From positions 1 through 42,416 of IMG/VR virus record IMGVR_UViG_3300033233_000074: a DNA stretch of 42,416 bases; one strand, written 5' to 3'. Below, piece by piece: positions 1 to 20,659 of the stretch. Below the pieces are notes generated by a model, which saw nothing but the letters and a program-made list of their open reading frames with translations, did not search any database and was not told the origin of the DNA. Source of the stretch: a virus. Lineage: Duplodnaviria; Caudoviricetes. Position 1 is the stretch's first letter; the number at the start of each line of letters is the position of its first letter. The translations under genes and the position numbers were made by a program.

Positions 1-64
1 ACCCCACCCCCTCCAAAACACCCCCCCACACCACACACCCCCCCCGGGGGGGGGGGGACTGGGA

Positions 65-2251
65 TTGTATTCCGTATCAGACTTGTTCAAACATTATCTA
101 TCCCAGTCTGATAGGCAGTTTGAAATCAAAACTGTAATTGATGGCAAAACATACGATAACACATCAGTCATTGAGTTCTCCATCGAGGACAGCATTGTCC
201 CTTCCGAGGAATTCACGCTGGGTTCAGTAATCTCTGCCAAGTTAACCCTCTCTATTCGAACATCCGATACTATCGCGAATAACGCTCAAGTACAACCATA
301 TGTAAGAATGTACGGCAACGACGGATATACCGAGTGGCTTCCTTTGGGGGTTTTTTACATCGACTCAAGAACTTATCAAAATAACGTTTGGAAGTTTACT
401 TGTTTTGATAAGTTGATAACTTCCCAGCAGGATTATGTTTCTGGACTAGCTTTTCCTGTCTCGATGCAGGAGGTTTGGGATGAAATCTGTAACGCGCTAG
501 ATGATTATATTCCGCTTTCTGGTGTGTCGTGGGAATGGCCATTCGATTTTACTGTTGCAGGCGATGTTCTGACGCAGCCTTGTTTTTATATTGACTCTGG
601 TGTCAAAATCGACCCGACATATAATATCCCTTATAAGCCGGATGGGCTCTATACTATGCGTGATATGATGGGGTATATTGCTTCGGCGCATGCTTCTAGC
701 GTAAAGATGACCAGGGAGGGGCAACTAAAGTTCGTAAAATTTGCGCCTGAAACAGAAATTACCCCGATCGGCCCATCCGAGTTCTTTCGGTGTGATCAAA
801 CGAATCCGTTAAAAGGCTACACCAGGGTTGTGCTCACTTACAATGCAGACGGTGAAACTCTGGAAGTTGGTACTGGAGACGACGATCATACTCTCAATTT
901 TTATAACCCCTTCATGGACCAAGTTATGTTAAATGACGTGTATGACGTCATCAGCGGCCAAAGCCTTCAGCCTTTATCTACCAATTGGCCTTTTGACCAA
1001 ACTGTCCTAGATGACCCTGCGTCAACGTATAGCGAATTAAGCTATATTCCGTTCAGTATGTCTTGGAAGGGTAGGCCAGATCTTGATGTTGGAGACTTTA
1101 TATCAGTAACTCAACGGGACGGCTCCATAATCAGATCCATGCTTTTATCGAATAAGCTTGATTTCAAGGGTGGCCTAAAAGAAGAAAGTGCGGCCCAGTC
1201 AACTTCGGCTCAAAAAAGCGAGTTCACCTACAAAGGTACATTGCAGAGTAGATTCAACGACCTTAGGACTAAATCATTGCAGCTAGACCAACCCTACTAT
1301 GGGGTTACAATCGGCAGAGCTTATGGAATCAAAGTTGAGAAGTCAGATGGTTCCAGCAAGGCTATCTTTAACAGCGATGCTATTGAGATTCTTAAAGGTG
1401 GCACAGAAAAAGTTTTCTACACAGATGTCAACGGCGACTTACAAATCGCAGGGTTTATTAAGGCAAAAGGTCTAGTCATTTCTGATGGCTCTTCTCTTCT
1501 AACTCCCGATGGAACAAAGATAGCCGGTACAAAAATAGACAGCAATGGGCTGACCCTTGGAACCGGAGCAAGTATAGATTGGACCAAGGTAAATGCGCCC
1601 AATGCTGCTCAAGTGGGTGCTAGGCCGGATACTTGGATGCCTACAGCAGCAGATGTCGGGGCGCTGGCAACTAACTGGGTCGGAACAACTCATATTGATT
1701 CAAATGGGCTCTATACCGGTACAATCAACGCTAACCAAATTAATGTGGGATATCTGACAGGATTCACAGTTCGGACGTCCTCAGGAAGCTCCAGAATTGA
1801 GATGAATGGGACTGACTTGACATCCTACTATTCGGGCTATACTTCAATTAAACTTACTACATCAACCCTAGAATTTTGGGGTAGTGGAAGTTATCTTGGA
1901 TACCATTCAGGCAAAATTTTTGGCAACGGGCACGCTATGGGGTTGGATGCAGATACTGGTTTTATATTTACGCAAGCAGGCTCCTATCTTCTGAATATGG
2001 GCCTAGGGACGACTTTTCTATACAGTAACCTTGTGTTAACCGGGGCTAACGCTGATATGACCTGTTACAACCTAAAAGCGGTTGCCGTTAAAAGTTCTAT
2101 TGGAGACAATATCATACGACTAGATAATGGCTGTTATATCGAATCCTTGTCAGACGGGATAAGATTACACTTTAATGCAAGCAACTATTTCTACATTGGA
2201 ACGAGTGGAGCTTACGCTGTTGTAAACGGGACGTGGACCAGATTGGCTTAG
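65..2251 (+). CDS. Phage minor tail / baseplate hub (Tal-like) protein with beta-rich C-terminal spike region
   Basis: 728 aa ORF. The N-terminus resembles Firmicutes siphophage tail proteins (EWLPLGVFYID, W-GRPDLDVGD) and the C-terminus is G/S/T-rich. It lies upstream of fibre and lysis genes. The TTG start abuts low-complexity contig-end sequence, so the start is uncertain. Confidence 0.75.
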   Translation: MYSVSDLFKHYLSQSDRQFEIKTVIDGKTYDNTSVIEFSIEDSIVPSEEFTLGSVISAKLTLSIRTSDTIANNAQVQPYVRMYGNDGYTEWLPLGVFYIDSRTYQNNVWKFTCFDKLITSQQDYVSGLAFPVSMQEVWDEICNALDDYIPLSGVSWEWPFDFTVAGDVLTQPCFYIDSGVKIDPTYNIPYKPDGLYTMRDMMGYIASAHASSVKMTREGQLKFVKFAPETEITPIGPSEFFRCDQTNPLKGYTRVVLTYNADGETLEVGTGDDDHTLNFYNPFMDQVMLNDVYDVISGQSLQPLSTNWPFDQTVLDDPASTYSELSYIPFSMSWKGRPDLDVGDFISVTQRDGSIIRSMLLSNKLDFKGGLKEESAAQSTSAQKSEFTYKGTLQSRFNDLRTKSLQLDQPYYGVTIGRAYGIKVEKSDGSSKAIFNSDAIEILKGGTEKVFYTDVNGDLQIAGFIKAKGLVISDGSSLLTPDGTKIAGTKIDSNGLTLGTGASIDWTKVNAPNAAQVGARPDTWMPTAADVGALATNWVGTTHIDSNGLYTGTINANQINVGYLTGFTVRTSSGSSRIEMNGTDLTSYYSGYTSIKLTTSTLEFWGSGSYLGYHSGKIFGNGHAMGLDADTGFIFTQAGSYLLNMGLGTTFLYSNLVLTGANADMTCYNLKAVAVKSSIGDNIIRLDNGCYIESLSDGIRLHFNASNYFYIGTSGAYAVVNGTWTRLA

Positions 2252-2264
2252 GGAGACGGTTAAC

Positions 2265-2486
2265 ATGAAAGACCCACAAACGTCACGCAAATTAGAAAAG
2301 ATTGGCAATAGTTACGTAGAGACTCACACTACGGTTCAACAGTTCTCTCTTGCTGAAATTATCGGGATGAAATCCAATATTGAGACTGAGCTAGCGATGA
2401 TCTCGTTACAGAGAAAGGCTTTGGATGACAGAGAAACTGAACTGAAAGATAAACTGAATCAAATTGTTTTGCTTATTAATCAGTAG
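2265..2486 (+). CDS. Small coiled-coil hypothetical protein (tail module)
   Basis: 73 aa ORF, GGGAG RBS, directly after the tail gene. Confidence 0.65.
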   Translation: MKDPQTSRKLEKIGNSYVETHTTVQQFSLAEIIGMKSNIETELAMISLQRKALDDRETELKDKLNQIVLLINQ

Positions 2487-2499
2487 GGGAGGAGAATTT

Positions 2500-2643
2500 G
2501 TGGAAGTTGACGCTAATGCCGTAATAGCCCGTCTGTCAAAACAGATAGGCGAGCTTACTGTCGCGCTGGCCGTAAGGGATGTTCAAATTGAGGTATTGTC
2601 GCAACAACTAGCTGACGCTCAGGCTCAAAACCACAAAAAATAA
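2500..2643 (+). CDS. Small coiled-coil protein, possible tail-fibre chaperone (47 aa, not in ORF track)
   Basis: GGAGGAG RBS then GTG; reads VEVDANAVIARLSKQIGELTVALAVRDVQIE...; TAA at 2641-2643. Confidence 0.65.
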   Translation: MEVDANAVIARLSKQIGELTVALAVRDVQIEVLSQQLADAQAQNHKK

Positions 2644-2662
2644 GATTGAGGAGGGATAAAAT

Positions 2663-4042
2663 TTGGCTTGGCAATATTCAACTAGATTGCGTTGCTATAC
2701 TGGAGTTTCAACGGATCCGAAACCGACTACAGGCATAGATAGGGACTCTTTGGCCTACGAGTATGATACAGGAAATGTTTATATCTTTGATGCGACAACG
2801 TGGTGTCTAAAAAGTACAGGTATTGCGGCAACTGTGCAAATCGGGGCAGCTCTCCCAGCCGGGACCAACAACATCGGCGACGTGGATGTAGCAAGCCTTC
2901 CGGCGTTGCCAGCCGGGACCAACGTCATCGGTAAAGTCGGTATCGATACCGCGGCCAATACTGTTAAGATTGATTCCAGCAACAACACAGTAAAGGACAA
3001 CGATGTCGGAGCTGGGGCAACCGGCATTACCATGCCTGCCGGTGGCAGCGGAAAACTTGGTTGGCTAAGCGGTATTTATGATCGGTTGTCCAAGGTTGTG
3101 CTTGCTGCGGGTACAGCTATTATTGGCAAGGTCGGCATTGACCAAACAACTGACGGTACTACCAACCGAGTTGTGGCCAAAATTAGTCAAGCAGCCGGGG
3201 AAAACGTCGTAACCACTGCAGATGGCGGGATAGCTACGATTGGAGCTAAGGCAGATGCTGCTGTAGTTGACCCGACGCTGTCAGCTAGCGAGGTTGCTCT
3301 GCTCAAGGGGATCATGAAGCAGCTCCAAGGCGCTGGCTCAGGGGCGGCTCCAATCGCATTGGCCTCAGGGACTCCAACTACAGCCACGCTTCAAAATGCG
3401 GCAGGGGCTGTAGGAAACGGAACTTCGATGGATGTATCCGGGCTTGCGGTCGCAACCTTGGACGTCCAGGGAACGTTCGTAGCTACGGTGGTATTTGAAG
3501 GCTCAGTGGACGACACGGTGTGGTATCCTTTGAATGCTACCAACCTGGGAACAGGCCTCATTGCCAGCTCGACCACAGGCAATGGAGTCTTTCAGATTAG
3601 CGTCGCAGGGCTCAAGAGTATCCGCGCTCGGATCAGTGCATGGACATCAGGAACAATCACGGTCAAGGGGAGAGGAACGCCATTAGCAGCATCAGAGAAG
3701 GCTGTTTCGATAACTGGGAGTTTAGCGAATGTCCCGATTGACATAAAGGCAAATATCGAAACCACAACCTCTGCGCCTGTGGTCGGGGTGAAAACAGTGA
3801 CTGCTACTGCTGCTGAGATTTTTGCCGGCGCTTCTGCTAAAGCAAGTAGACGCAAGCTTATCATAAAAAATGAGGACTCTATTCTCCGCTTTAGGATCGG
3901 CTCGTCGAGTGTAACACAGCAGACAGGCTTCCCTGTGGAACCTGGTGCTAGCGTAGAGTTTCAATTTGATCCGACTGTAGTAGTACCGATTTACGCAATT
4001 TCTGAAGGTGCAAATCTAAATGTGGCGGTGATGGAGTTATGA
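2663..4042 (+). CDS. Tail fibre-like virion structural protein, apparently mosaic
   Basis: 459 aa, A/G/T-rich, internal repeats LPAGTNNIGDV / LPAGTNVIGKV / LAAGTAIIGKV; GAGGAGG RBS. Confidence 0.7.
   Translation: MAWQYSTRLRCYTGVSTDPKPTTGIDRDSLAYEYDTGNVYIFDATTWCLKSTGIAATVQIGAALPAGTNNIGDVDVASLPALPAGTNVIGKVGIDTAANTVKIDSSNNTVKDNDVGAGATGITMPAGGSGKLGWLSGIYDRLSKVVLAAGTAIIGKVGIDQTTDGTTNRVVAKISQAAGENVVTTADGGIATIGAKADAAVVDPTLSASEVALLKGIMKQLQGAGSGAAPIALASGTPTTATLQNAAGAVGNGTSMDVSGLAVATLDVQGTFVATVVFEGSVDDTVWYPLNATNLGTGLIASSTTGNGVFQISVAGLKSIRARISAWTSGTITVKGRGTPLAASEKAVSITGSLANVPIDIKANIETTTSAPVVGVKTVTATAAEIFAGASAKASRRKLIIKNEDSILRFRIGSSSVTQQTGFPVEPGASVEFQFDPTVVVPIYAISEGANLNVAVMEL
3706..3729. other. Candidate tyrosine-recombinase site S1 (inside the fibre gene)
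   Basis: TTCGATAA-ctgggagt-TTAGCGAA: 8-bp inverted arms (7/8 match) around an 8-bp asymmetric spacer. Confidence 0.5.
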
Positions 4043-4248
4043 TGCACGAATTTGTTAGCAATTTAGACGGTACGACGACAATAAAAGTTGATTTTTCTGA
4101 TGAAGGCGTCCAATTAATTGGAGAGACATCTATTAAGGGTGATGCCGTTTCTTACTTGCCTGTGTTTGAGGAGGATTTGCGTCGTAATTTTCCAGATAAA
4201 TTTCCCATGCCGATAGTTATCTCAGATACGAATGGAGGAATGATTTAA
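4039..4248 (+). CDS. Hypothetical protein in the receptor-binding cassette
   Basis: 69 aa ORF translationally coupled to both neighbours. Confidence 0.7.
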   Translation: MMHEFVSNLDGTTTIKVDFSDEGVQLIGETSIKGDAVSYLPVFEEDLRRNFPDKFPMPIVISDTNGGMI

Positions 4249-5471
4249 TGAGATATATTCCCGGCAATACAACTCAACAGCAAATCATTAACGCAATTTA
4301 CGATGCAGAGATGAAGTTGACTGAACGCTACGACAGAGATGGAGCAATAACCGATGCAGCAGAGCAGAAAAAATGGTGTGAACTTATTCGAGACGCCTCA
4401 TTTGGCAGGAATACGGTTATATTTGATGACCAGGGTAACCCCTCAGTTATGGTTGTTTTTCCCTTGCAAAAACAAGTTGACTTGATACCTGGAGGAACGC
4501 AAACTGCTCATTACGCCTTCATTGTGAATAACTCGATAAAGCCAAGACTGTATATCGCCAAGTATCAATGTTTTACTGTTGGTTCCGGCACAACTTTAAG
4601 AGCTGTCAGTCTCAAGGGCAAAGACCCTGCTGTTAACATCATTTTTGATAATGCAATTCTCGCGTGTACACAAAAAGGCACTGGCTGGCACTTAATGACT
4701 AACGCAGAGTGGGCAGCCATCGCTCTCTGGACTAAAAAACAAGGGTTTATGCCGCGCGGAAATAATAATTTTGGTACAGACATCAATGTTAGCACTGAAA
4801 CTGGAATCATGAGCTATTACGACTCCGGATCTGGGAAAGTAGGAAGAGTGACAACTGGTTCCGGGCCTATATCATGGTCACATGATGGTAGTCCGTTTGG
4901 TATCTTCGACCTTAACGGAAACGTCTGGGAATGGGTCGGAGGTTTACGACTCAAAGACGGCGAAATCCAAGTCATTAAGGATAATGATGCAGCTATCAAT
5001 ACTGCTGATCAATCAGCTACAAGCTCCTTATGGCAGGCAATCCTGCAAGATGGAACTTTGGTCGCTCCGGGTACTGCGAACACGCTGAAGTACGATAATA
5101 CGACTGCTGGTGATTCTACAACAACCAGCCATGATGTTGGTGGTGATATCAGAGTCAATACAACAGTGGCCAATCCGAACTATATTCCTGGTGGGCAAGT
5201 TGATTACGGTTACTCTAATACGGCATTTGAATCGATTACGGCTGCAGCTGGCGTAACTATTCCGGTATTATTACAAGCACTTGGTCTCTATCCTATTGAT
5301 GCCAGTCACGGCGTAGACGGAGTGTGGTCTCGGAACTATGGCGAACGCCTCTCGTTTCGTGGCGGCAACTGGAGCGTCGGTGCCGGTGCAGGTGTGTTTA
5401 GCTTGAATCTGAGCAACCCTCGGTCGTACGCGAACACGAGCATCGGGTTTCGCTCCGCTTTTGTCCTCTGA
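4248..5471 (+). CDS. Major tropism determinant (Mtd)-like, FGE-type C-type-lectin-fold receptor-binding protein; DGR target type
   Basis: Motifs GWHLMTNAEW, GIFDLNGNVWEW and C-terminal RGGNW...GVFSLNLSNPRS...IGFRSAF, typical of DGR-diversified CLec proteins. Confidence 0.85.
   Translation: MRYIPGNTTQQQIINAIYDAEMKLTERYDRDGAITDAAEQKKWCELIRDASFGRNTVIFDDQGNPSVMVVFPLQKQVDLIPGGTQTAHYAFIVNNSIKPRLYIAKYQCFTVGSGTTLRAVSLKGKDPAVNIIFDNAILACTQKGTGWHLMTNAEWAAIALWTKKQGFMPRGNNNFGTDINVSTETGIMSYYDSGSGKVGRVTTGSGPISWSHDGSPFGIFDLNGNVWEWVGGLRLKDGEIQVIKDNDAAINTADQSATSSLWQAILQDGTLVAPGTANTLKYDNTTAGDSTTTSHDVGGDIRVNTTVANPNYIPGGQVDYGYSNTAFESITAAAGVTIPVLLQALGLYPIDASHGVDGVWSRNYGERLSFRGGNWSVGAGAGVFSLNLSNPRSYANTSIGFRSAFVL
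5340..5460 (+). other. DGR variable-region (VR)-like segment
   Basis: Positions that are AAC in canonical TRs appear here as NNC codons (agc, gtc, gcc, agc, agc, aac, tac, aac, agc) between conserved scaffold codons. Confidence 0.7.
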
Positions 5472-5484
5472 GTTAATGTATGAC

Positions 5485-5508
5485 TTCGCTAAAGACCCAA
5501 AATTAGAA
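5485..5508. other. Candidate tyrosine-recombinase site S2
   Basis: TTCGCTAA-agacccaa-AATTAGAA; 17/24 identical to the reverse complement of S1; starts 14 nt after the Mtd-like stop codon. Confidence 0.45.
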
Positions 5509-5521
5509 GGAAGGGACCGCC

Positions 5522-5599
5522 ATGCCCTATATTCTGGCCTATCTTGCAGTGCTTGCGTTGCTTTTACTTTTCAATTATGGTGCTCATTACAGCGGTTAG
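5522..5599 (+). CDS. 25-aa hydrophobic peptide (MPYILAYLAVLALLLLFNYGAHYSG)
   Basis: GAAGGGA RBS, ATG at 5522, TAG at 5597-5599; one TM-like stretch. Confidence 0.45.
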   Translation: MPYILAYLAVLALLLLFNYGAHYSG

Positions 5600-5600
5600 A

Positions 5601-5640
5601 AGAAAAAGAGAGCCCTTGGCCGCAATGACCAAGGGCTAAG
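5601..5640 (-). terminator. Intrinsic terminator for the recombinase gene (possibly bidirectional)
   Basis: Stem agcccttgg/ccaagggct with an A-tract on its left side. Confidence 0.7.
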
Positions 5641-5642
5641 TC

Positions 5643-6470
5643 TTATATCGCTGAATATTTGTCGTACATGTTCATTTTGGTCTGCTCGTCTAGCATCGCG
5701 TAACGCTTGGTCGTATCCGGTCTGGCGTGCCCTAATTCATCCTGGATGAATCCTAAGTCGGCGCCGTTCTTGTAGAGGTTGGTGGCGAAGGTGTGGCGCA
5801 TTACGTGGGGAGTAACCTTCGCCCGAAGGCCGGCTGCCATGCCTATCTCTTTTATCTGCATTTCCACGGACCGCACTGACAGGCGCTGGCCATACTTATT
5901 GATAAACAACGCAGGGTTATTGTCTTTGCGCTCAGCAAGGTAAGCCATTAAGCAGAACTTTGCGATGACCGAGAAGTGAACGAGCCTTTCCTTGTTACCC
6001 TTCCCGCGAACCTTAATCCGGCGGAAGTTCATGTCGAGGTCGGCACGGTTCAATTGTATCATTTCCGAGATCCGCATTCCACTGCTCACCAGGAGTTCCA
6101 GAATGGCCTGATTGCGAGTGCTTTTCTCGTGGAACCGCAACCGATCGAATTCCTCTTTGGTCAACGCCTTGGGCAACACAACAGCCTCCTTGGGGGTCTT
6201 GATTTTGCGGGTAGGGTTCTTCTCTAAGTACTCTTCTTCGACGAGCCAGGTGTAAAAGGCCTTCACCGTGGAAATCTTCCGGGCAATCGAGTTTTGAGCC
6301 ATGTGCTGGAACTGTAGGAGATATTGACGAAGGTCGTTTGTTGTAGCCTCGATGGTGGGTTTGTCCAGGTATGCGGCAAGTTTAAGCAGCTCCCGTTTGT
6401 ATTGTTCAAGGGTGCCAGTGGCTAGGCCGTCAAGTTTTCTAGCGGTCAAGAATTCTTGGACGTATCGCAT
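5643..6470 (-). CDS. XerC/XerD-like tyrosine recombinase
   Basis: SAM-like N-terminal domain; catalytic motifs SGMRISE, GKGNKER, HVMRHTFAT, LGHA...TKRY. Confidence 0.95.
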   Translation of the reverse strand: MRYVQEFLTARKLDGLATGTLEQYKRELLKLAAYLDKPTIEATTNDLRQYLLQFQHMAQNSIARKISTVKAFYTWLVEEEYLEKNPTRKIKTPKEAVVLPKALTKEEFDRLRFHEKSTRNQAILELLVSSGMRISEMIQLNRADLDMNFRRIKVRGKGNKERLVHFSVIAKFCLMAYLAERKDNNPALFINKYGQRLSVRSVEMQIKEIGMAAGLRAKVTPHVMRHTFATNLYKNGADLGFIQDELGHARPDTTKRYAMLDEQTKMNMYDKYSAI

Positions 6471-6487
6471 GTCTTTTTGCTCCTCTC

Positions 6488-6594
6488 TTGATGTCTCGGA
6501 GCAAAACCCTTACAATAAGCGTAAGGCACTCCGGTGTCGCAATAAGCACTTCCGTTTGGCTGCCAGGCTGATTAACGGGGTGCTTATTTTATTT
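6488..6594 (+). ncRNA. Candidate cis-antisense sRNA (promoter included) in the recombinase leader
   Basis: TTGATG-17-TACAAT at 6488-6516, then hairpin aataagcac/gtgcttatt followed by a T-tract. Confidence 0.45.
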
Positions 6595-6771
6595 CAGTTG
6601 ATCAAGAATAATTTCAATTTTCCTTTTTTCTTCTTCGCTACGACTTTGTTCCCATGTTACAAATGCTTGTTTGAGAACGGATGTTTTGTCCGTATTGAGG
6701 ATTAAAGCCCAGGCAGAGATGCGCTTTAATATTTCGTCGTCAAACCTGTAGGCCGTAGCCTTTGTGACCAA
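6589..6771 (-). CDS. Small ribbon-helix-helix-like DNA-binding protein
   Basis: 60 aa, ATAYRFDDEILKRI strand-helix pattern, GGAGG RBS; co-oriented upstream of the recombinase. Confidence 0.6.
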   Translation of the reverse strand: MVTKATAYRFDDEILKRISAWALILNTDKTSVLKQAFVTWEQSRSEEEKRKIEIILDQLK

Positions 6772-6945
6772 ACTAAACCACCTCCATTTCTAGGACAAGT
6801 ATACCACCGTATTAAATGCAATACAAGAGGAAAGGACGGATATACTTATTCTATCTGAGCTGGAAGACTCTATTTCGAACACAACGACATCTCAATTGGC
6901 GTAGGTGGATCAACGTCTGCCGAGGGCGTTATTATACCGAAAGGG

Positions 6946-7203
6946 GTGGGTGGATTGACCGAACCAGAATTACTTATGGAAATTCGGGAGCGCCTGGTGC
7001 GTGTGGAAACAAAGCTGGACAATCAGAATGGTCTGCGGGAAAAAGTCGATACCCTGGAAGCTAAAACGACCGAAGTTGAAGCCAGAGCAAAGTCAAATAC
7101 CCATCGAATTGATCGGTTGGAAGCAAACAACACATGGCTCTGGCGTACTGTCGTTGGGGCCATTATTAGTGCTGCGGTTGCTGCGCTAGCTATTTTCAAA
7201 TGA
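6946..7203 (+). CDS. xhlA: XhlA (hemolysin)-family lysis membrane protein
   Basis: ERLVRVETK...HRIDRLEANNTWLWRTVVGAII plus a C-terminal TM segment; precedes the endolysin. True start may be TTG at 6955. Confidence 0.85.
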   Translation: MGGLTEPELLMEIRERLVRVETKLDNQNGLREKVDTLEAKTTEVEARAKSNTHRIDRLEANNTWLWRTVVGAIISAAVAALAIFK

Positions 7204-7219
7204 GAGGAGGGATTTAGAG

Positions 7220-8029
7220 ATGCCTAAAATATGCATTGACCCAGGGCATGGCGGTCGGGATTCTGGAGCAGTTGGTCCGAGTACCTATGAAAAGAATAAC
7301 GTACTTCAGTTAGCTCAAAAAATTGCAGCTATCTTGCAGGCAAGTGGGATAGAGACAGTGCTTACTCACTCCGATGACCGGGATTTTTGCCCCGGTTATT
7401 TTAATGTCGATGAAGACTTGCAGAACCGGGTAGCTGTGGCCAATAGTTCTGGCGCTGATATTTTTATATCACTCCACAACAACAGTGGTGGTGGCAATGG
7501 TAATGAGGTCTATGCCCTGCAGCCGGGTGGCCCGGGGGGGAAGTTGGCGCAATGCATCCATGCCCGAATGCTCGGTCTCAGTATGGCTGACCGCGGCGTC
7601 AAGTTCGCTGGGTGGTATGTAGTTCGCAAAACTACGATGCCGGCAGTGCTCGTGGAATATGGTTTTATCGACACTGAAGAGAGTCTAATTCTGGCTAAAA
7701 TGGACCAGGCGGCTTTGACCATTGCTCAGGGGATTGGGGATTATCTCGGAATAGAGGTTAAGGGGGAAGACGACGTGCTCAAAGATGCAATCGTCATGTT
7801 CAGCGACGAGGACTACTGGGCCGCAAAGGACGTAAACGCCAAACATGGGAATAGCCTTGCGATTTTTAACCGGGATCGGAAGACGGAGGCACCGCAAGAT
7901 GCCATGAAGGCGGAACACATCTTCACCATCGGCGGGCCGCCGACCGGGCATAAGAACGAAACCCTGTTGTCTGGTCAGAACAAGTACGAGACCGCTGCCA
8001 AGGTCGGCCAATACCTGGCTCAAAACTAA
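7220..8029 (+). CDS. Endolysin: N-acetylmuramoyl-L-alanine amidase (Amidase_3) with C-terminal cell-wall-binding region
   Basis: ICIDPGHGGRDSGA, FISLHNN, PAVLVEYGFID motifs; C-terminal IGG...LSGQNKYETA resembles a CW_binding_2 repeat. Confidence 0.93.
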   Translation: MPKICIDPGHGGRDSGAVGPSTYEKNNVLQLAQKIAAILQASGIETVLTHSDDRDFCPGYFNVDEDLQNRVAVANSSGADIFISLHNNSGGGNGNEVYALQPGGPGGKLAQCIHARMLGLSMADRGVKFAGWYVVRKTTMPAVLVEYGFIDTEESLILAKMDQAALTIAQGIGDYLGIEVKGEDDVLKDAIVMFSDEDYWAAKDVNAKHGNSLAIFNRDRKTEAPQDAMKAEHIFTIGGPPTGHKNETLLSGQNKYETAAKVGQYLAQN

Positions 8030-8072
8030 CGGTCCCTATTGGGGAACCCAAAAATAAAGGAGAGGATACGGA

Positions 8073-8594
8073 ATGGATACGACGGCTTTAATCACTTTTG
8101 CAATGGCCCTGGTGGTCATAGCTGTATTTTTCGGCACGATGTTTGGCATCCAGCTGGCGGTAGCCAAGGGCAAAAACTTACAGCCAGTTTTGCAAACGGC
8201 GGACACGGTCATAGATGCAGCCAAAGCAGCAAACGATTCTGTCGGCAAACTGTTAATCCCCGAGCCAGCGGAAAGCATTATCGATAAAGTTTTGACCGTA
8301 GCGCAATCAGGAGTCCACGAAGCAGAACAGCTTTATCAAAGTGGCCAGCTGCCGCCGGATCTCCGGAAGGAACAGGCCGTGCAGTCGGCGTTAAATTTAT
8401 TGAAGCTGGAAGGCAGAGAAATCACCCCAGAGATAGAGGCGGCTTTGCGCGGGGCCGTTGAGGATGCGGTCTATATTATGAAATCCACATCTCCGGGAAG
8501 TTCTGGAACGCAACCGGTTCAAGTACCTTATACACCTCAAGATCCGTCTCCTCAGGTGCCAGATGCACCTGCTCAAGATGCACCAGCTGTATAA
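8073..8594 (+). CDS. Phage holin (LL-H-like)
   Basis: N-terminal TM segment; VHEAEQL...RKEQAV...IEAALRGAV pattern; follows the endolysin. Confidence 0.75.
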   Translation: MDTTALITFAMALVVIAVFFGTMFGIQLAVAKGKNLQPVLQTADTVIDAAKAANDSVGKLLIPEPAESIIDKVLTVAQSGVHEAEQLYQSGQLPPDLRKEQAVQSALNLLKLEGREITPEIEAALRGAVEDAVYIMKSTSPGSSGTQPVQVPYTPQDPSPQVPDAPAQDAPAV

Positions 8595-8600
8595 ACTGTT

Positions 8601-8628
8601 GCCCTCTGCTTCGGCAGGGGGCTTTTTT
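8601..8628 (+). terminator. Intrinsic terminator of the late/lysis operon
   Basis: gccctctgc-TTCG-gcagggggc followed by TTTTTT. Confidence 0.9.
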
Positions 8629-8689
8629 GTTTTCAATGAACAAATAATATATGTAAAGGCCAGTCATGCACACTGGCTCGATGCGGGAT

Positions 8690-8760
8690 CCCGCGACCTC
8701 CCCGGCGTAAAGCCGGTTCATCGGTTTCGGCAGTGCCCCAGACTGCCATCGTCAGGCGGG
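8690..8760 (-). ncRNA. Type I hammerhead ribozyme
   Basis: Minus strand: CCCGC-CUGACGA-U-GGCAGU(cuggggc)ACUGCC-GAAACC...GGUC-GCGGG. All three stems and the core are present, with one extra U after A9. Confidence 0.8.
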
Positions 8761-8940
8761 TTTGTGTGTGTAGTGATTTCCCAATCTTTCGTATAGGTTC
8801 TGGCAAACATGGGTGTTCATGCGGTCAATTGCAGTGCATTTACCATGCTTTTCGCATCCCTCGCATACTGCATTTTCACGATTCCATTTATTTATCCAAT
8901 ATTTTTGAGCCTCGCTGTTCGTATTCCATAGGTTTCCCAT
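8752..8940 (-). CDS. Small Cys-rich hypothetical protein (62 aa)
   Basis: AGAGGAG RBS before ATG at 8940; CEGC...C...C residues. Shorter than the 113-aa ORF in the track. Confidence 0.6.
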   Translation of the reverse strand: MGNLWNTNSEAQKYWINKWNRENAVCEGCEKHGKCTAIDRMNTHVCQNLYERLGNHYTHKPA

Positions 8941-8989
8941 TTTTTTCGCTCCTCTCTGCGGGATTAGCCGCCTGGCTTCGGCCTTGAAT

Positions 8990-9304
8990 TTATTCCGCTG
9001 TGTATGCTTGCCACTTCTTAGTAACTTCACACTCGATAATGTATCTACACTTTCCTTCGGGGTCATACACGAAGTACGGGTATTCTGTTCCAACGCCTTT
9101 TAAGGTTTCCTTGATACTGTTCTTGTAACTTTTGCCTTCTTCTAGTGCCTTAATAGCAGCGTCTACGTTGCCGGTCTTACGGGCTTCTGCTACCTGTCTT
9201 CCACGTTCTTTCGCCCATCGTTTCACGCTGATAAAATAATCCGGGTTAAGTCCTGTTTGAATTCTCCAACCGGTTGGCATTTCTTTTCTGCTTAGCTTTT
9301 TCAT
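8990..9304 (-). CDS. Hypothetical protein (104 aa)
   Basis: GGGAGG RBS before ATG at 9304. Confidence 0.65.
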   Translation of the reverse strand: MKKLSRKEMPTGWRIQTGLNPDYFISVKRWAKERGRQVAEARKTGNVDAAIKALEEGKSYKNSIKETLKGVGTEYPYFVYDPEGKCRYIIECEVTKKWQAYTAE

Positions 9305-9325
9305 AGCTTTGGCCTCCCTCATTAT

Positions 9326-9412
9326 CGACTCCATAATAGTGTCATTTCTTAAGTAAATATTAGCATGACACTATAAAAGTGTCAATAGTATATTGACACT
9401 TTTTTGGAGTAT
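9326..9412. promoter_or_regulatory. Three operator-like inverted repeats in a divergent promoter region
   Basis: cGACTCC-N5-AGTGTCA, perfect TGACACT-N5-AGTGTCA, and TGACACT-N5-GGAGTat, overlapping TTGACA boxes on both strands. Confidence 0.7.
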
Positions 9413-9438
9413 ATTTATAATGATGGTGAGGTGGTATC

Positions 9439-9651
9439 ATGATTAAGTCCAACCTAAAGGAAATCCTCGACTCAAGAGGTTTATCTATTCGAAAAGTGGC
9501 CGGAGATTTGGGTTACAGGTTTGAAACGGTGCGCCGGATGTACAATGACGACATGAAACATTATCCGGGAGATTTGATTGACAAGCTTTGCGCGTATCTT
9601 GATATAGAAGTTGGCGAGCTGCTGGAGCATAAAAAAGACACCGGGGAGTAA
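9439..9651 (+). CDS. Cro/C1-type HTH regulator
   Basis: 70 aa; LKEILDSRGLSIRKVA...IDKLCAYLDIEVGELL. Confidence 0.9.
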   Translation: MIKSNLKEILDSRGLSIRKVAGDLGYRFETVRRMYNDDMKHYPGDLIDKLCAYLDIEVGELLEHKKDTGE

Positions 9652-9674
9652 GCCGGTGCCGGCCGCCGCGAAGA

Positions 9675-9712
9675 AGAAAACCCTCTCTCGCTTCGGCGGG
9701 GGAGGGCTTTCT
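9675..9712. terminator. Intrinsic terminator (possibly bidirectional)
   Basis: ccctctctcgc-TTCG-gcgggggaggg flanked by A- and T-rich tracts. Confidence 0.75.
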
Positions 9713-9725
9713 TACTTTTGCCGGG

Positions 9726-9810
9726 GATACCATCTACAGGGTACCACCTACAAGGTACCGTCCTTATAGCGCGGTATCTTATAGACGGTATTCTATGCGC
9801 GGTAGGTAGA
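9726..9810. repeat. Symmetric 3+3 inverted repeat array with 14-bp period
   Basis: TACC at 9728, 9742, 9756 and GGTA at 9773, 9787, 9801; all three pairs are centred on 9766. Confidence 0.75.
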
Positions 9811-9960
9811 TAAACCAGCAGAACCTTATCGTGTCTGGCTTTGCAGGTTTGTAGCGGATATCAGTTAGGAGTGTTTTTTTGGTAGGGAAAATTTTAATAA
9901 AAACCTGATAAAAGGACTTGCCATCGTATTGATTATGCGGTATCATAGAATCAAGATAAC

Positions 9961-10365
9961 ATGAAAGGAGAAATGAAAAAAATGATGTATGTAAAAACCT
10001 TTGCTTCTTTTGCCCCCGGTTTGACTGAGCTTGCGAACGTCTATTTCAGTGCGAAAGACGCACTGACAATGGGAACCCCGAGAAAGCCGCTTCCGGAAAC
10101 GGAAGAGGAAGCCACGACAAGGCTTGCCTTGAACGTGATCTGGGATCGTCCCACCGGAAACGGTGTGGATTGGGATATGTGCTCCATTTCCATTTCCGCC
10201 TATGGTGTCACGTACACCACGCGCGGAGGGATTACTTTCGGGTGGAGGGTGTATCCCGAAGGATCTCAGGAATACCCCTTCCTCGGGTATAGGTTCTTCG
10301 TAACTCATGCCCACATAGATTCTCCTGATTCCAGCCTTGCCGCCTCCGCACAAGCGGCGGGATAG
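9961..10365 (+). CDS. Hypothetical protein
   Basis: 134 aa ORF downstream of a TTGCCA...TATCAT sigma-A-like promoter; an internal AAGGAG RBS suggests a start near 9982-9985. Confidence 0.55.
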   Translation: MKGEMKKMMYVKTFASFAPGLTELANVYFSAKDALTMGTPRKPLPETEEEATTRLALNVIWDRPTGNGVDWDMCSISISAYGVTYTTRGGITFGWRVYPEGSQEYPFLGYRFFVTHAHIDSPDSSLAASAQAAG

Positions 10366-10374
10366 GTACAAACG

Positions 10375-10482
10375 GAATAAACCGAAAGGCAGTCGCCAAC
10401 CCGCAAAGCTGAACGACTGCCTTTGAACCACCACGGAGGACGGTTATGCTTACATAATACAGCAGCCGTCTTCCGAAGACAA
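10375..10482 (-). ncRNA. Candidate cis-antisense sRNA (promoter included) in the leader of the helicase/PAPS-reductase operon
   Basis: Minus-strand TTGTCT-17-TATTAT (10482-10454), then an 11-bp hairpin aaaggcagtcg/cgactgccttt. Confidence 0.45.
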
Positions 10483-10489
10483 GGAGGAA

Positions 10490-11662
10490 ATGGAAATGGC
10501 TTGGTATAATATTACTTATGCTTGCGGCCATGAAGGCCGGGAGCAAATCTATGGGCCTACGAAAAATAGGCAATGGATTGCTGATCGCAAGGCCGAAGGG
10601 CTTTGCCCGGATTGCTACCAGAAAGAGCTCAAGCGTAAGCACGAGGAAGAAAACGCTAAAGCTGCGGAGGTCAATAAAGAGTATGGACTCCCTGAACTTA
10701 TTGGTACTCCGAAGCAGGTGGCTTGGGCGGAAACCTGCCGGAGAGACTTGATTGCAAAGATCCAAAAAGTGATCGATGAAGAACTTGAACACATCGATGA
10801 ATCTAAAAAAGATGTACCACTGAAAAGGCTAACTATCGCGCTCCAGCACATTATGAGCCAAGAGTCAGCGGCTTGGTGGATTGATAACCGAGGACTTGAA
10901 GGTCGTTATGAAATAGTATCGCTCCTCGCAAAGCATTACAAAGAAGCCAATAGCGAACCAGAAAAGAAACTAATTGAGGCGGAAAAGATTGCAATTGAAG
11001 CAGAAGCTACAGTTCGCCCCGAAAATCCTGTTACTGAAACTGTAGCGGAAATTCTAGTGAAAGACGATAGCGTTGAGATTGTTTTCCCGGAGAAGAGGGA
11101 CGATTTCCGGGAACTAGTCAAATCTACTCTCAAGATGAAGTGGGAGGGAAGATGGGTACGCAAACTCGTGCCACGAAACGGAACCCCAGTAGACCGCGCA
11201 GCCGAAGCCGGGCATCGGTTATTGGCAGCCGGTTTCCCGATCCGAATTTTTGATGCGGCAATCCGCGAGAAAGCTATCCGCGGTGAGTATGAACCGGAAT
11301 GTACCCGTTGGATACTTACCAGGACAAGTGGGGAATACAATGGTTGGCTCGTCGTTTCATGGGAGTGTCCCGATGACTTCTACAAAGCCGCCCGGCGTTT
11401 GCCCGGCAGTCGTTATTCTAGCCCATGTGTTGTTGTTCGGCCGGAGCATTACGAGGAAGTATTGGATTTTGCAGCCAAGTACGGATTCAAGATTTCGGCA
11501 AGCGCACAGGCTTTCATAGATGCAGCACGGGAAATTCGTGAGCGCGCCCTGGTCCCACATATCGATGAGCCAGAGAAAGTCAAACATATTGTTACGTCCG
11601 GCAAGCCACCTGTTCTTGAAGTTCCAAGCGAGGTGGGGATAGCGGATGAATTTAAGGACTGA
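10490..11662 (+). CDS. Hypothetical protein with N-terminal Zn-finger (CGH...CPDC)
   Basis: 390 aa, AGGAGG RBS, LIGTPKQVAWAE motif; overlaps the start of the helicase gene. Confidence 0.8.
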   Translation: MEMAWYNITYACGHEGREQIYGPTKNRQWIADRKAEGLCPDCYQKELKRKHEEENAKAAEVNKEYGLPELIGTPKQVAWAETCRRDLIAKIQKVIDEELEHIDESKKDVPLKRLTIALQHIMSQESAAWWIDNRGLEGRYEIVSLLAKHYKEANSEPEKKLIEAEKIAIEAEATVRPENPVTETVAEILVKDDSVEIVFPEKRDDFRELVKSTLKMKWEGRWVRKLVPRNGTPVDRAAEAGHRLLAAGFPIRIFDAAIREKAIRGEYEPECTRWILTRTSGEYNGWLVVSWECPDDFYKAARRLPGSRYSSPCVVVRPEHYEEVLDFAAKYGFKISASAQAFIDAAREIRERALVPHIDEPEKVKHIVTSGKPPVLEVPSEVGIADEFKD

Positions 11663-13058
11663 GCTTTTGCCCCACCAGGTTCCTGTAGTAGAAAAGATTC
11701 TGCCATCGCGAATCGGAGCTCTTTTCATGCAGATGGGGCTGGGCAAGAGCCGGACGGCCATAGAACTGGCGTTTAGGCGCTGGAGCAAAATTGATCATGT
11801 CGTCTGGTTCTGCCCAGTGTCCTTGAAAGAGACAGTGCGACAGGAAATCCTTAAGCACACAGATTGCACCAACATCTATGTATTCAATGACAAAACCAAC
11901 GCAAAACGCCTTCCCCTGGCCTCCTGGTACATTATTGGCATCGAGTCAATGAGTTCAAGCACCCGTATGGTTCTAGCTGCAAACAAGCTGATTACAACCG
12001 AGACCATGGTGATCTTGGACGAGTCCAGCTACATCAAAGGCCATTACACTAAGAGGACGCTCCGAATCACCAAGATGTCGGAGCGTGCCCGCTATCGGCT
12101 CATCCTAACCGGCACCCCGCTTTCTCAGGGGGTTGTGGACCTGTTCGCACAAATGAGGTTTCTCTCACCGAAAATCCTTGGCTACGATTCCTTCTACTCC
12201 TTTGCTGCAAACCACCTGGAATACAGCGAGAAATTCCCTGGCATGATCGTCCGAGCGCACAATACTGAATATCTCGCTGCCAAGATTGCCCCGTACGTTT
12301 ATCAAGTGACCAAGGAGGAGTGCTTGAATCTTCCCTCAAAGCTTTATACCACTCGCTATTTTTACATGACCGATGAACAGGCAGAGAGATATCAGCAAGC
12401 CAAAGAGGAGATTCTAGCAGAGTTGTTGGAGCAGGAAGAGTTTGATACGACAGTGATATTCCGTCTTTTCTCCGTTTTGCAGCAGATCGCCAGTGGTTTC
12501 TGGCACCGAAGAGTGAAGCGCAAAGGTTTTCAGATGTTGGAATTCGAGCATGAACGCATTGACATGCTTTTGAGTACAATCCGAGAAATCCCCGAGACAG
12601 AAAAGATCATTATCTGGGCAAAATTCCGGTATGATATTGACCACATTGAGAAGGCATTACGGAAAGAATTTGGGGAAAATAGTGTGGCTTTGTTTCACGG
12701 TGGGCTATCGGAAAAGGAGCGTAATAAGCAGGTATCGCTTTTTCGGAGCCCAGCTCGGTTTTTCTTGGCCACACAAAGTGCCGGCGGCCACGGCCTCACT
12801 CTGAACGAAGCGCATTATGTCATCTTCTACAACAACGGCTTCAAGTATTCCGAACGGGAGCAGGCTGAGGATCGCTGTCATCGAATTGGCCAGACGCACA
12901 AAGTGACTTACATTGATATCCAGTGTCTTTGCAGTATCGACGAGAGGATTGCAAAAGCACTCAGTAACAAGGGGGATATGGTGCAGGAATTCCGGGCAGA
13001 GGTGGAAAAGATTAAGGACAAGAAAGACGCGCTGAGGGAGTTGATTCAAAAGCTATGA
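11646..13058 (+). CDS. SNF2-like SF2 helicase/ATPase
   Basis: MQMGLGKS, ILDESS, LTGTP, GGHGLTL, QAEDRCHRIGQ. Confidence 0.92.
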   Translation: MNLRTELLPHQVPVVEKILPSRIGALFMQMGLGKSRTAIELAFRRWSKIDHVVWFCPVSLKETVRQEILKHTDCTNIYVFNDKTNAKRLPLASWYIIGIESMSSSTRMVLAANKLITTETMVILDESSYIKGHYTKRTLRITKMSERARYRLILTGTPLSQGVVDLFAQMRFLSPKILGYDSFYSFAANHLEYSEKFPGMIVRAHNTEYLAAKIAPYVYQVTKEECLNLPSKLYTTRYFYMTDEQAERYQQAKEEILAELLEQEEFDTTVIFRLFSVLQQIASGFWHRRVKRKGFQMLEFEHERIDMLLSTIREIPETEKIIIWAKFRYDIDHIEKALRKEFGENSVALFHGGLSEKERNKQVSLFRSPARFFLATQSAGGHGLTLNEAHYVIFYNNGFKYSEREQAEDRCHRIGQTHKVTYIDIQCLCSIDERIAKALSNKGDMVQEFRAEVEKIKDKKDALRELIQKL

Positions 13059-13930
13059 TTAGGATTGGCTTAAGTAGCCGGGAAAAGCAAAAGGTCGTTG
13101 ATGCCTACTTGCAGACCCATGACATCAAGAAGATCTATTGCTTTTATTTCAAAAAGTTCCCCATCAAGTTTAAAGTTGATTGCGACATCGAGTATATCGA
13201 GTATGCCGACATCGAAATGTATAAGTTCTTTTATCGACTGCTTGAGGAGATTGATGGGACAAGCCTCATCATCATGGACGAGTGTATGCGGACGCAAAAC
13301 CGGAGTGAGTTGATTTACAACTGTGCCCATCACTATTTGAATCAGACACCGCATCGTATCATTTTTGAATTCTTTCCGATTATTGACAATAAGAACGATT
13401 TCATGATTTTGCTCGACTTTGAGAACAAAGGGAAGTATAAAGGAAAATCCTTTGACTATGTGTTTCTTCAAAGTGAGGATATTCTCATAAAGCCCTTTCG
13501 TGTCAAATTGGAACCGATCAACGTTGAAATCACGGACAAAGATATTGAGCGTTACAACAAGAAGAAGGAGCAACTATTCGATAATTTAGGCGACAAGGAC
13601 CCTGACACCGTACCAAGAAGCCTGCAGCTTTTTGTCGGGGGCCTAAAGAAGAAGTCCATAGATCCCAATGAATTGTATGTCGCGAGGAATAAGCGGTTTA
13701 AGTTGGATAACGTGAAAACCTACGATGAAATTGATAAGCAGGGAAATTACATCGTTATAGACACCGACTGGCGAAGGCTAAACTTCAACGATTTCCTTAA
13801 GACAACCCGAATGACAAGGATCAAGTATTTAAGTACAGTTCTCTCAATCGACAATGTGATCATCACTGAATTCTCGAAGTGGAAAGCGAGGTTAGACGCA
13901 ATCTATGCTCAAGCAAGTCTATATCAATAA
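13055..13930 (+). CDS. Hypothetical protein, possibly a degenerate helicase-like fold
   Basis: 291 aa, ATGA-coupled; LIIMDEC resembles Walker B but no Walker A is visible. Confidence 0.7.
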   Translation: MIRIGLSSREKQKVVDAYLQTHDIKKIYCFYFKKFPIKFKVDCDIEYIEYADIEMYKFFYRLLEEIDGTSLIIMDECMRTQNRSELIYNCAHHYLNQTPHRIIFEFFPIIDNKNDFMILLDFENKGKYKGKSFDYVFLQSEDILIKPFRVKLEPINVEITDKDIERYNKKKEQLFDNLGDKDPDTVPRSLQLFVGGLKKKSIDPNELYVARNKRFKLDNVKTYDEIDKQGNYIVIDTDWRRLNFNDFLKTTRMTRIKYLSTVLSIDNVIITEFSKWKARLDAIYAQASLYQ

Positions 13931-15023
13931 GACGGTGTTAGAGGCGGCCAAGGAACGCATTGCCTACATCTTTGACGAGTTCGAGAACATCATCGTCTCA
14001 ATAAGCGGCGGAAAAGATAGCACCGTCCTGGCGCACCTGGCACTTACCGAAGCACATAAACGCTGCCGGAAAATCGGAATATTCTTCCTGGATGAAGAGG
14101 TTGTTTACGACAGCACTATTAAGCAGGTTGAATACATCATGAATCTATACCCCGAAAACACAATTAAGCTGTGGTTTCAAATCGAATTCCACCTCACAAA
14201 CGCCACTAGTCTAACTGAGAGCCAACTCATTCCCTGGGAGGCCGGTAAGCACAAAATCTGGATGCGGAGCAAGCGGGCTGATTCTATCCAGCATAAACCA
14301 TGGCCGAAAGAGACAGAAACTGTCCGGGACAAAAACAAAGGCTTTGGGTTTTACGACGCACTGGAGAACTTTCAGCGCTCACGTAAGGATACAGCCTTCC
14401 TTGTTGGCCTTAGAGCTACAGAAAGCCCGAACCGATGGAGGGCAGTATCAAAAAACCCCGGATACAAAAATGTCTATTGGTGCACAAAAATGCCTAACGG
14501 CTGTGCTTCCTTCTACCCTCTGTACGACTGGAACTTTCATGATATCTGGAAATACATTTACGACAATCAGTTGAGATACTCTAAAATTTATGACTACATG
14601 TACAAAAAGGGTATGGGATTGCAAGAGATCCGGGTATCAAGTCTAATCCATGAGAAATCTTTTAAGGCGCTGGTGGAACTGCCGGAGTTCGAACCCAAGA
14701 CATATGATCGACTACTTAAACGTATCAAGGGAATCAGCGTCGGGAATCTCTATGGCAAGGATACAAAGATGTTACGAGTGCAAAAGTTGCCAAAGAACTT
14801 CAAGACGTGGATGGAGTACCGGGATTTCCTGCTGGAAACCTATCCGGATGAGACCAAAAAGGAAATCTTTGTGAAGAGGTTTGCCAAACACCTGAATAAT
14901 TCCTATGTCGCTCGCCAACAATGCCGACAACTCATACTGAACGATTACGAAAACAATCTGCCGATAGACAATAAGCCGGACCCAAGGGAAGAAACTATAA
15001 GGAAGTGGAGGGAGTTGTTATGA
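13905..15023 (+). CDS. PAPS-reductase-family PP-loop protein (IbrA-like)
   Basis: VSISGGKDS PP-loop, LVGLRATESPNRW, YPLYDWNFHDIW. Confidence 0.9.
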   Translation: MLKQVYINKTVLEAAKERIAYIFDEFENIIVSISGGKDSTVLAHLALTEAHKRCRKIGIFFLDEEVVYDSTIKQVEYIMNLYPENTIKLWFQIEFHLTNATSLTESQLIPWEAGKHKIWMRSKRADSIQHKPWPKETETVRDKNKGFGFYDALENFQRSRKDTAFLVGLRATESPNRWRAVSKNPGYKNVYWCTKMPNGCASFYPLYDWNFHDIWKYIYDNQLRYSKIYDYMYKKGMGLQEIRVSSLIHEKSFKALVELPEFEPKTYDRLLKRIKGISVGNLYGKDTKMLRVQKLPKNFKTWMEYRDFLLETYPDETKKEIFVKRFAKHLNNSYVARQQCRQLILNDYENNLPIDNKPDPREETIRKWRELL

Positions 15024-15559
15024 TGGTTATTGAGTCCAAAAAGGGACCGATTAAGCTACCGTGCATGGATGTCAAAATCGTTGATATAGACTTGGTGCAA
15101 GCCAATAATTACAACCCTAACCGCGTATCATCTCAAAATATGGGCTTACTAGAGGAGTCGATTCTGTCCAATGGCTTTTGCTTTGCGGTTGTGACAGTCT
15201 GGGATCCGGATCTGGAGAAATATATCGTGGTTGACGGATATCATAGATACCTTGAATTCCGGGACCGACTGGAAGCTAAGCAAATCCCTATCATTGTTCT
15301 GGAACATGATATCACTAAGCGCATGGAAGCCACGGTGCAATTTAACCGGGCTCGCGGAGTACACCAGGTTGAACTTATGGGAGATTTAGTTCAGGCTCTG
15401 GTAGAGCAAGGGGTCGAGGATGAGGAGATCGCTCAGAAGCTCGGTATGGAAATTGAGGAGGTTTATCGGCTGAAGCAAATCACCGGCATTGCAGAACTGT
15501 TTAAAAATCAAATCTACTCAAAAGCCTGGGAAATGGTCGAGGTGGATGAAAGTGCCTAA
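15020..15559 (+). CDS. ParB/Srx-like protein (IbrB-like) with C-terminal HTH
   Basis: ANNYNPNRV, IVVDGYHRY, TVQFNRARGVH, EIAQKLGM. Confidence 0.9.
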   Translation: MMVIESKKGPIKLPCMDVKIVDIDLVQANNYNPNRVSSQNMGLLEESILSNGFCFAVVTVWDPDLEKYIVVDGYHRYLEFRDRLEAKQIPIIVLEHDITKRMEATVQFNRARGVHQVELMGDLVQALVEQGVEDEEIAQKLGMEIEEVYRLKQITGIAELFKNQIYSKAWEMVEVDESA

Positions 15560-20031: not shown

Positions 20032-20218
20032 TGAGCAACACCCCCGTTACAAGGCTGATAGCTATCAGTAAGTAAACGTAGCGGAATGCCTTCCGGAAAC
20101 CGAACATGCCAATGGCTGCCAGGACCATCGATGCTAAGGCTGCCACCCTAAGCCATAGAAAGAAGAAGTCGGCTAGGGTGACGTCTTTTAATGACCACAG
20201 GAATTTGAGGAACTCCAT
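20015..20218 (-). CDS. Small two-TM membrane protein (in the position VirB3 occupies in T4SS operons)
   Basis: 67 aa, hydrophobic, GAGG RBS, overlaps the ATPase start. Confidence 0.7.
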   Translation of the reverse strand: MEFLKFLWSLKDVTLADFFFLWLRVAALASMVLAAIGMFGFRKAFRYVYLLIAISLVTGVLLSAAKG

Positions 20219-20231
20219 GTGCCAACCCTCC

Positions 20232-20650: not shown

Positions 20651-20659
20651 ACGTCCGGC

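Follow-up and report, generated by a model that had tools for sequence, protein, structure and literature searches.

We analysed a 42.4-kb virus record (IMGVR_UViG_3300033233_000074, Caudoviricetes; positions 1 to 42,416, hereafter the window) in which two short sites, S1 and S2, enclose the end of a virion protein gene and its downstream neighbours and probably bound a cassette exchanged by an adjoining recombinase. Between the tail and lysis genes lie, in order, open reading frames (ORFs) of 459, 69 and 407 amino acids (aa), followed by antisense genes for a 275-aa recombinase and a 60-aa ribbon-helix-helix (RHH)-like protein. Annotation confirmed the arrangement given in a preliminary description of this DNA, with a tyrosine recombinase and an RHH-like gene antisense between tail and lysis genes and a serine integrase elsewhere, and the positions it assigned to S1 and S2 also held. 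The features are as follows.

65-2251: tail gene, upstream of the S1-bearing ORF
2663..4042, + strand: 459-aa tail-region appendage protein, with a stalk, a YomS/XepA-like jelly roll (residues ~239-339), a linker holding S1 and a swappable jelly-roll tip
3706..3729, + strand: S1, with degenerate outer arm TTCGATAAC, centre TGGGAG and invariant inner arm TTTAGCGAA
3716..4042, + strand: cassette part 1, a 108-aa tip starting at GSLA, a small beta-sandwich (model pLDDT 79)
4039..4248, + strand: cassette part 2, a 69-aa protein (ORF call)
4248..5471, + strand: cassette part 3, a 407-aa C-type-lectin-fold (CLec) protein of the type targeted by diversity-generating retroelements (DGRs), with an FGE-sulfatase match and a match to PDB 5VF4 (E 1e-69)
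5485..5508, - strand (inverted relative to S1): S2, read on the + strand as inner arm TTCGCTAAA, centre GACCCA and degenerate outer arm AAATTAGAA
5643..6470, - strand: 275-aa Xer-like tyrosine recombinase without an arm-binding domain
6589..6771, - strand: 60-aa RHH-like protein upstream of the recombinase (matches RHH clusters at 0.92-0.93; no Pfam match)
6946-8594: lysis genes, beyond the recombinase and RHH-like pair
22690-24297, - strand: large serine integrase, likely the prophage integrase (context only)

S1 sits within the 459-aa ORF (2663-4042), where it is read in frame as ..SITGSLAN.., and 13 nt separate the stop codon of the 407-aa gene from S2. As described earlier, S2 is identical to inverted S1 at 17 of 24 positions, compared with 10 of 24 in direct orientation. 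The 9-mer TTTAGCGAA has only two exact copies in the 42.4 kb, at S1 and S2, and its one-mismatch copies (15 versus 13 expected) are at chance level. We note that the exact 9-mer pair in the window alone is weak evidence, and that the case rests on relatives. The arm-spacer-arm form first proposed was seen, but not its 8-8-8 split: relatives favour a 6-bp centre between arms of 9-11 bp (9-6-9 in basic layout), giving sites of 24-28 bp. S2, with its degenerate outer arm, was missed by the palindrome pattern of the preliminary description allowing three mismatches.

An exact search of viral contigs with the S1 15-mer returned 105 loci, 66 of them with at least 1.5 kb downstream, and S2 followed S1 at a distance of 0.3-3.3 kb in 19 of these 66 (reversed control, 0). 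The reverse search, anchored on S2, covered 119 loci and gave 29 upstream arm matches. TGGGAG preceded 16 of these (14 distinct) although only the arm had been queried, so that the Gly and Ser codons and the preceding wobble base are fixed at the DNA level, in agreement with the suggestion that S1 is conserved at synonymous positions. The remaining 13 matches had scattered centres and are probably chance. About two-thirds of the S1 15-mer matches and most S2 16-mer matches in viral contigs are probably also chance and were not counted as members. The 41 loci with both sites reduced to 20 non-redundant phage or prophage loci, including the window.

Across these loci the inner arms are invariant, in part owing to search selection, and the outer arms are degenerate yet more similar than background (4.35 and 3.6 of 9 positions, versus 2.3). 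Two fixed centres recur, TGGGAG at S1 and GAYNCA at S2, and in every locus the inner two bases set them apart. When the centre was left free in a search of five host genomes, exactly the S1 or S2 centre was found in 19 of 43 arm-pair sites (control sites numbered 23). A fully palindromic S2-type site lies in a small-gene region of a 93-kb phage (L356:7002), with no S1 within 7 kb. Four related phages (L376, L403, L454, L460) carry an S2-like match with an inverted arm 213 bp upstream and another centre, which may be chance or a distinct class.

The segment between the two sites differed in every one of the 20 loci. Cassettes ranged from 0.6 to 2.8 kb, all were fused in frame at GSLA, S1 always lay within an open frame continuing into the cassette, and S2 lay 2-131 nt past the last long ORF. 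Five phages with a common backbone (L250, L275, L303, L382, L392) resolve the joints: measured from the S1 end, left homology stops at 0 to +3 in nine of ten pairs (+10 in the other) and returns -12 to 0 from S2 in nine of ten (+31 in the other), and no match of at least 60 bp was found inside the cassettes of these pairs. For L263 and L420, homology breaks at 0 from S1 and resumes at -2 from S2. The matched genomes G082 and G084 share 97% identity as far as the final base of S1 and 96.5% from S2, with unrelated cassettes of 1.7 and 2.5 kb between. P0122, the closest relative of the 459-aa protein, is 67% identical over residues 72-357; the match ends at GSLAN, and another tip follows. Among 40 relatives, P0122 alone has GSLAN at that place, and several others have different GS-type motifs there. 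Conversely, where one tip occurs in unrelated backbones, homology starts at -18/-19 (L003/L272, 86%; L303/L383, 85%). These comparisons bear out the expectation that homology would break at S1 and resume at S2 around unrelated cargo.

Several further arrangements occur at the cassette edges. In L003, L272, L303, L383 and L420 an additional in-frame, site-like motif, N-A-Y-K-A-E, lies ~+250 to +370 after S1, close to where several cargo genes begin; the similarity between shared tips ends just past it, and the motif may mark a further point of exchange that uses a different type of arm. Extra units lie between tandem direct S2 repeats in L263, L412, L424 and L663, and the repeats in the first three fit additional S2xS2 events. 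The S2-like repeats at L424:4087-4740, L263:7393-7590 and in L412 surround small ORFs, a collar-like gene or a 179-bp unit. The ends of the 179-bp unit in L263 are tRNA-like; a tRNA identity was rejected, as neither ARAGORN nor Rfam gave a match. The swapped cassettes of G082 and G084 (L706/L707) belong to a stand-alone appendage gene amid chromosomal genes, adjoining a radical-SAM-like cluster (labelled by sequence look); no phage structural genes were seen in the listed ORFs.

A simpler rearrangement, inversion between S1 and S2 as an on/off switch or shufflon for the tip, is the least likely of the explanations we weighed. The sites are indeed inverted, the first four centre bases are common to both in the window, and S2 read backwards also encodes G-S-L-A. 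Moreover, the Rin shufflon of Bifidobacterium prophages (PMC6109161) uses a similar enzyme, an armless XerD-like recombinase beside a receptor-binding locus, and an in-frame site at the joint of constant and variable parts. Rin, however, inverts among several silent tips at identical rix sites within one genome, whereas the loci here have one S1 and one tip each, two non-matching sites and variation only between genomes (PMC6109161). The 20 loci contain neither the silent tips of Rin- or R64-type shufflons nor an alternative tip on the other strand. The inner two centre bases differ between S1 and S2 throughout, the inverted products would be junk tips of 6-75 aa in 20/20 loci, the S1 frame is open into the cassette in all 20, and no inverted joint appeared in the contigs of one run. 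The earlier judgement that a simple shufflon is unlikely thus stands.

The recombinase encoded beside S2 belongs to a distinct group. R133, K157, H222, R225, H248 and Y257 are invariant in 54 clade members, and R-K-H-R-H-Y is the catalytic set of tyrosine recombinases. Approximately 58 relatives at 50-89% identity are labelled as Desulfosporosinus, Dehalobacter or Desulfitobacteriaceae. In the tree the clade is monophyletic (100/100); its sister group consists of 330-aa phage proteins, and host XerC and XerD fall elsewhere. Among family cut-offs the protein passes only NF040815, scoring below those of XerC (231 versus 335), XerD (213 versus 330) and the integron integrase TIGR02249 (86.5 bits versus 265). 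No close recombinase was found in isolated phages or plasmids (best 40% and 42%), and no viral locus was found for P0055. The 60-aa RHH-like protein is a possible regulator, and a comparable small gene precedes the recombinase in L680 and L034.

The clade is tied to the sites. In all of the first clade loci an S2 arm lies behind the recombinase gene, with S1 further on, and S2 was present within 2 kb in 10/10 clade loci compared with 1/235 other tyrosine-recombinase loci. When genome and metagenome contigs were scanned with a profile that relied on generic motifs, the matches were mostly unrelated Xer proteins, plus one clade locus (L163), and these loci were used again as controls. S1 was also present at eight of the ten clade loci. 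This association supports the cassette-exchange reading of the preliminary description. Some of the 330-aa relatives (L034, L551, L552) have sites with a similar centre and other arms, a hint that arm and enzyme co-vary.

The breakpoints might instead reflect short conserved linkers at which homologous recombination by the phage takes place, with the tyrosine recombinase a bystander or acting elsewhere, an explanation that we consider very unlikely. S1 does offer 15 identical in-frame bases, the window encodes an AAA_24 protein that we presume may be a single-strand annealing recombinase, and most loci have no tyrosine recombinase. S2, however, is non-coding and shares only 11-12 bases, and homologous recombination leaves unexplained why the sites have arm-centre-arm symmetry, why their inner arms are identical and inverted, why their outer arms are similar above background and why the clade is consistently linked to S2.

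The sites extend well beyond phages. Our host set comprised 69 genomes from the family of G001 (the genome of L146, Desulfosporosinus sp. HMP52; Desulfitobacteriaceae). Exact S1 gave 43 matches in 24 of the 69 genomes (control, 1), and S2 gave 50 matches in 25 (control, 0), 42 of them with the window centre GACCCA. In a sample of the phylum, S1 occurred in 8/401 genomes, three belonging to the family set. Site pairs flank three prophage tail loci in G030, and elsewhere in chromosomes BlaI/BlaR1-like, GerA, GmrSD-like, tautomerase and cell-wall-binding genes. A 4-kb chromosomal cassette with 98% identity begins at the first S1 centre base, with differing outer arms. The scope of the system is therefore wider than the host-range cassettes originally proposed: phage tips are included, but so are chromosomal host genes unrelated to tails, and at most loci with sites no recombinase gene is close by. 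Within 9 kb, L537:6486-14850 holds three S1 and two S2 sites that bound BlaI/BlaR1-like genes, and the gene pairs between its sites resemble what we take to be toxin-antitoxin pairs.

S1 and S2 are not the host's own dif. The canonical dif, as predicted by Kono et al. (PMC3025954), is present as a single exact copy in 5/5 genomes, and its arms differ from those of S1 and S2. A special host recombinase near the clade was also sought in five site-bearing genomes, and none was found. A third site class (L561-L572; for example, L565:1501-1524 and 2014) has S1/S2-like arms and the centre TAGATA or close to it, ~480-590 bp from the canonical dif in 10/12 loci. Variable genes lie on the side away from dif, and the class possibly marks the edge of a terminus cassette region.

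The main rival keeps the same two-site exchange but assigns most of it to host XerC/XerD or a different tyrosine recombinase of the host, with the phage enzyme an occasional helper; we regard this as unlikely. In its favour, the site-rich genomes G030 and G043 have no clade member and hold XerC, XerD and unrelated integrases, and no recombinase lies in the 13 kb around the swapped cassettes of G082 and G084. The inner arm plus two flanking bases also matches the right arm of the predicted host dif at 7/11 positions, and the third site class near dif has similar arms. However, S1 and S2 arms do not have the ATAA/TTAT cores of host dif and are all of one type rather than C plus D, and the phage clade accompanies S2 at every clade locus. 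Furthermore, exact S1 occurs chiefly in one family and seldom in the phylum sample, though XerC/D are general. We favour action of the phage recombinase in trans, via visiting phages.

Tyrosine recombinases generally need matching centres. The requirement is stated for the pdif sites of Acinetobacter plasmid dif modules (PMC13141974). We favour the interpretation that S1 and S2 delimit an exchangeable cassette on its two sides and that two crossovers made by the adjoining Xer-like recombinase, the first at one site and the second at the other, move cassettes from one DNA molecule to another. Binding would be to the shared TTCGCTAAA-type arm flanking each 6-bp centre on both sides, and with differing centres each site would pair exclusively with its own kind (S1xS1, S2xS2). 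Since S1xS2 recombination would thus be shut, inversion and deletion within one genome would be blocked and replacement allowed, perhaps via a cointegrate or a donor fragment. The same two-step crossover route is the model for replacement of single dif modules (PMC13141974). The product would be a replaced cassette with both flanks still linked, as seen in the compared pairs. The position of S1 in a linker, with G-S-L-A in frame, means that any incoming tip would fuse to the resident stalk, and the incoming cassette would bring its own surface-binding or surface-modifying cargo gene. Binding and catalysis at these sites, work in trans where a locus has no enzyme of its own, and an effect on host range are predictions of this model.

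A broader version is plausible, though we hold it tentatively. S1 and S2 may be the shared two-site code of a family-wide cassette pool, with a mobile phage recombinase acting in trans on landing pads that are spread over unrelated phages, prophages and the chromosomes of Desulfitobacteriaceae. By exchange at two orthogonal centres, such a pool could trade not only receptor-binding tips but also genes of germination, regulatory and defence-like kinds, and so offer another route besides the mutagenesis by DGRs that acts on the same receptor-binding family.

Several observations weigh against the exchange interpretation. The recombinase was in the examined flanks of only 5/20 site-pair phage loci, the clade is encoded in only 2/69 family genomes though 24-25 carry sites (another enzyme may act), and in L004 the recombinase and S2 are present with no S1 found. 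S2 centres vary in the middle and at times at the ends (GACTGC, GGCCCA, AACCCA), and strict centre matching is not a full explanation. Many phage loci come from few IMG datasets and hence are not independent. No second copy was found of the whole window cassette between S1 and S2, and 0/80 relatives of the 407-aa cargo had S1 within two mismatches. Finally, one run, probably of the source sample, contained no alternative or inverted junction at S1 or S2 in its contigs, from which rare variants are dropped.

The exchange model shares most with Acinetobacter dif modules, in which inversely oriented pdif sites of arm-6 bp-arm form flank accessory cargo that moves by a cointegrate route (PMC13141974). 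S1 and S2 are likewise inversely oriented with two arms and a 6-bp centre; single cassettes are replaced, with S1 centres identical and S2 centres matching mostly at the ends; and modules alternate, as in S2-S1-S2 in L470 and L472. The differences are that S1/S2 arms are all TTCGCTAAA-type rather than XerC plus XerD arms (host dif cores being ATAA/TTAT), that the linked enzyme is a dedicated phage-encoded clade rather than chromosomal XerC/XerD, that only two main centre classes occur, that one site lies in frame inside a virion gene, and that the sites are in Bacillota phages and chromosomes instead of Rep_3 plasmids.

The preliminary description also likened the system to recombinase-mediated cassette exchange (RMCE) or an integron. 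The RMCE likeness fits, as the same arms with different centres flank a replaceable segment. Engineered RMCE uses heterospecific lox/FRT sites, and from their sequences S1 and S2 would be a natural case. The integron likeness does not extend to an IntI-type integrase, given the score below the cut-off. Integrons combine an IntI integrase with attI and attC, the latter being long hairpin sites. As in integrons, mobile cargo here ends in a site just past the stop codon and is occasionally stacked in tandem at S2; unlike integrons, there is a site at both cassette ends, and the sites are short and, judged by sequence, probably double-stranded and Xer-type. A related alternative, integron- or Tn916-like, is that the cassette is excised as a circle jointed by the two inner arms and inserted elsewhere without matching centres. 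The invariant arms are inner, as at the ends of an inserted element, and both the units enclosed by direct S2 repeats and the palindromic site of L356 would fit. We nevertheless judge it distinctly improbable: the centres are fixed and side-specific rather than target-derived, no empty S1/S2 hybrid site occurred among the examined loci, the integrase score is low, and single S2xS2 crossovers also yield tandem S2 repeats.

A full-text search found no published account of such a two-site system, most subscription papers and bioRxiv supplements being beyond its reach. What is new here is the matched genome pair, the controlled count that links enzyme and sites, and the finding that the site pair reaches into host chromosomes. 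Tail-tip mosaicism is usually ascribed to chance homologous or illegitimate recombination. With joints at two defined sites tied to one recombinase clade, a dedicated route of host-range change can be put to a direct test that needs a single 275-aa enzyme and a pair of 28-bp sites. If true, mobility in the style of dif modules would no longer be confined to Acinetobacter plasmids but would reach Bacillota phages and chromosomes, and a new orthogonal recombinase/site pair for cassette exchange might be provided.

The S1-bearing ORF had been called a fibre; S1 is in frame as stated, but the product is a stalk plus a YomS/XepA-like jelly roll (Foldseek E 3.6e-8 for YomS and 4e-7 for XepA) and not a proven tail fibre. 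The S1 gene comes after the capsid genes, not the tail genes, in L680 and L252, and we therefore use the safer term virion appendage. The tip gave a best Z of 7.9 in a fold search, a common jelly-roll arrangement with no match above Z 8, and it accompanies the same cargo family in 17/81 loci. Family searches assigned the 69-aa protein to no family and gave no usable Atlas match; a homologue is present at the equivalent place in L661.

The 407-aa gene, earlier termed Mtd-like and receptor-binding, does encode a DGR-type CLec protein, and receptor binding is its predicted role. Its match 5VF4 we take to be a DGR variable protein. A second variable-region-like segment is present in 42/79 relatives, and most relatives have a post-stop motif and hairpin at the place where the window has S2. 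This cargo belongs to the same target family as CLec-target DGRs, but, unlike in active DGRs, a template repeat, hairpin and reverse transcriptase do not follow it. No long repeat of the 3' terminus of this gene was found in window positions 1-12000, and no reverse transcriptase was found among the 44 window ORFs scanned, although the record may lack some genes. The window cassette looks like a DGR target severed from its retroelement. Phage cargos elsewhere include GDSL esterases (four) and polysaccharide deacetylase, pectate-lyase-like, ConA-like and alpha/beta-hydrolase proteins, and 12/20 phage cargo proteins have no Pfam match. A 'Kiwa-like' label for the L531 cargo was dropped, as PADLOC gave no support.

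Other features of the window lie outside the cassette. No Rfam families were found in it. A terminator-like hairpin (5611..5637, - strand; consensus match only) stands behind the recombinase gene, and between it and S2 is a 25-aa hydrophobic ORF with a ribosome-binding-like stretch (5522-5599). Operator-like overlapping inverted repeats (9323-9410) lie 5' of a helix-turn-helix gene. After the lysis genes comes a block of SNF2 helicase, PAPS-reductase/DUF3440, ParB-like and methylase genes (11646-16214), and a comparable block trails the recombinase locus in L467. Finally, an 827-aa orphan (weak mad8 match) and an actin-like gene, both antisense, adjoin the serine integrase (17548-24297).

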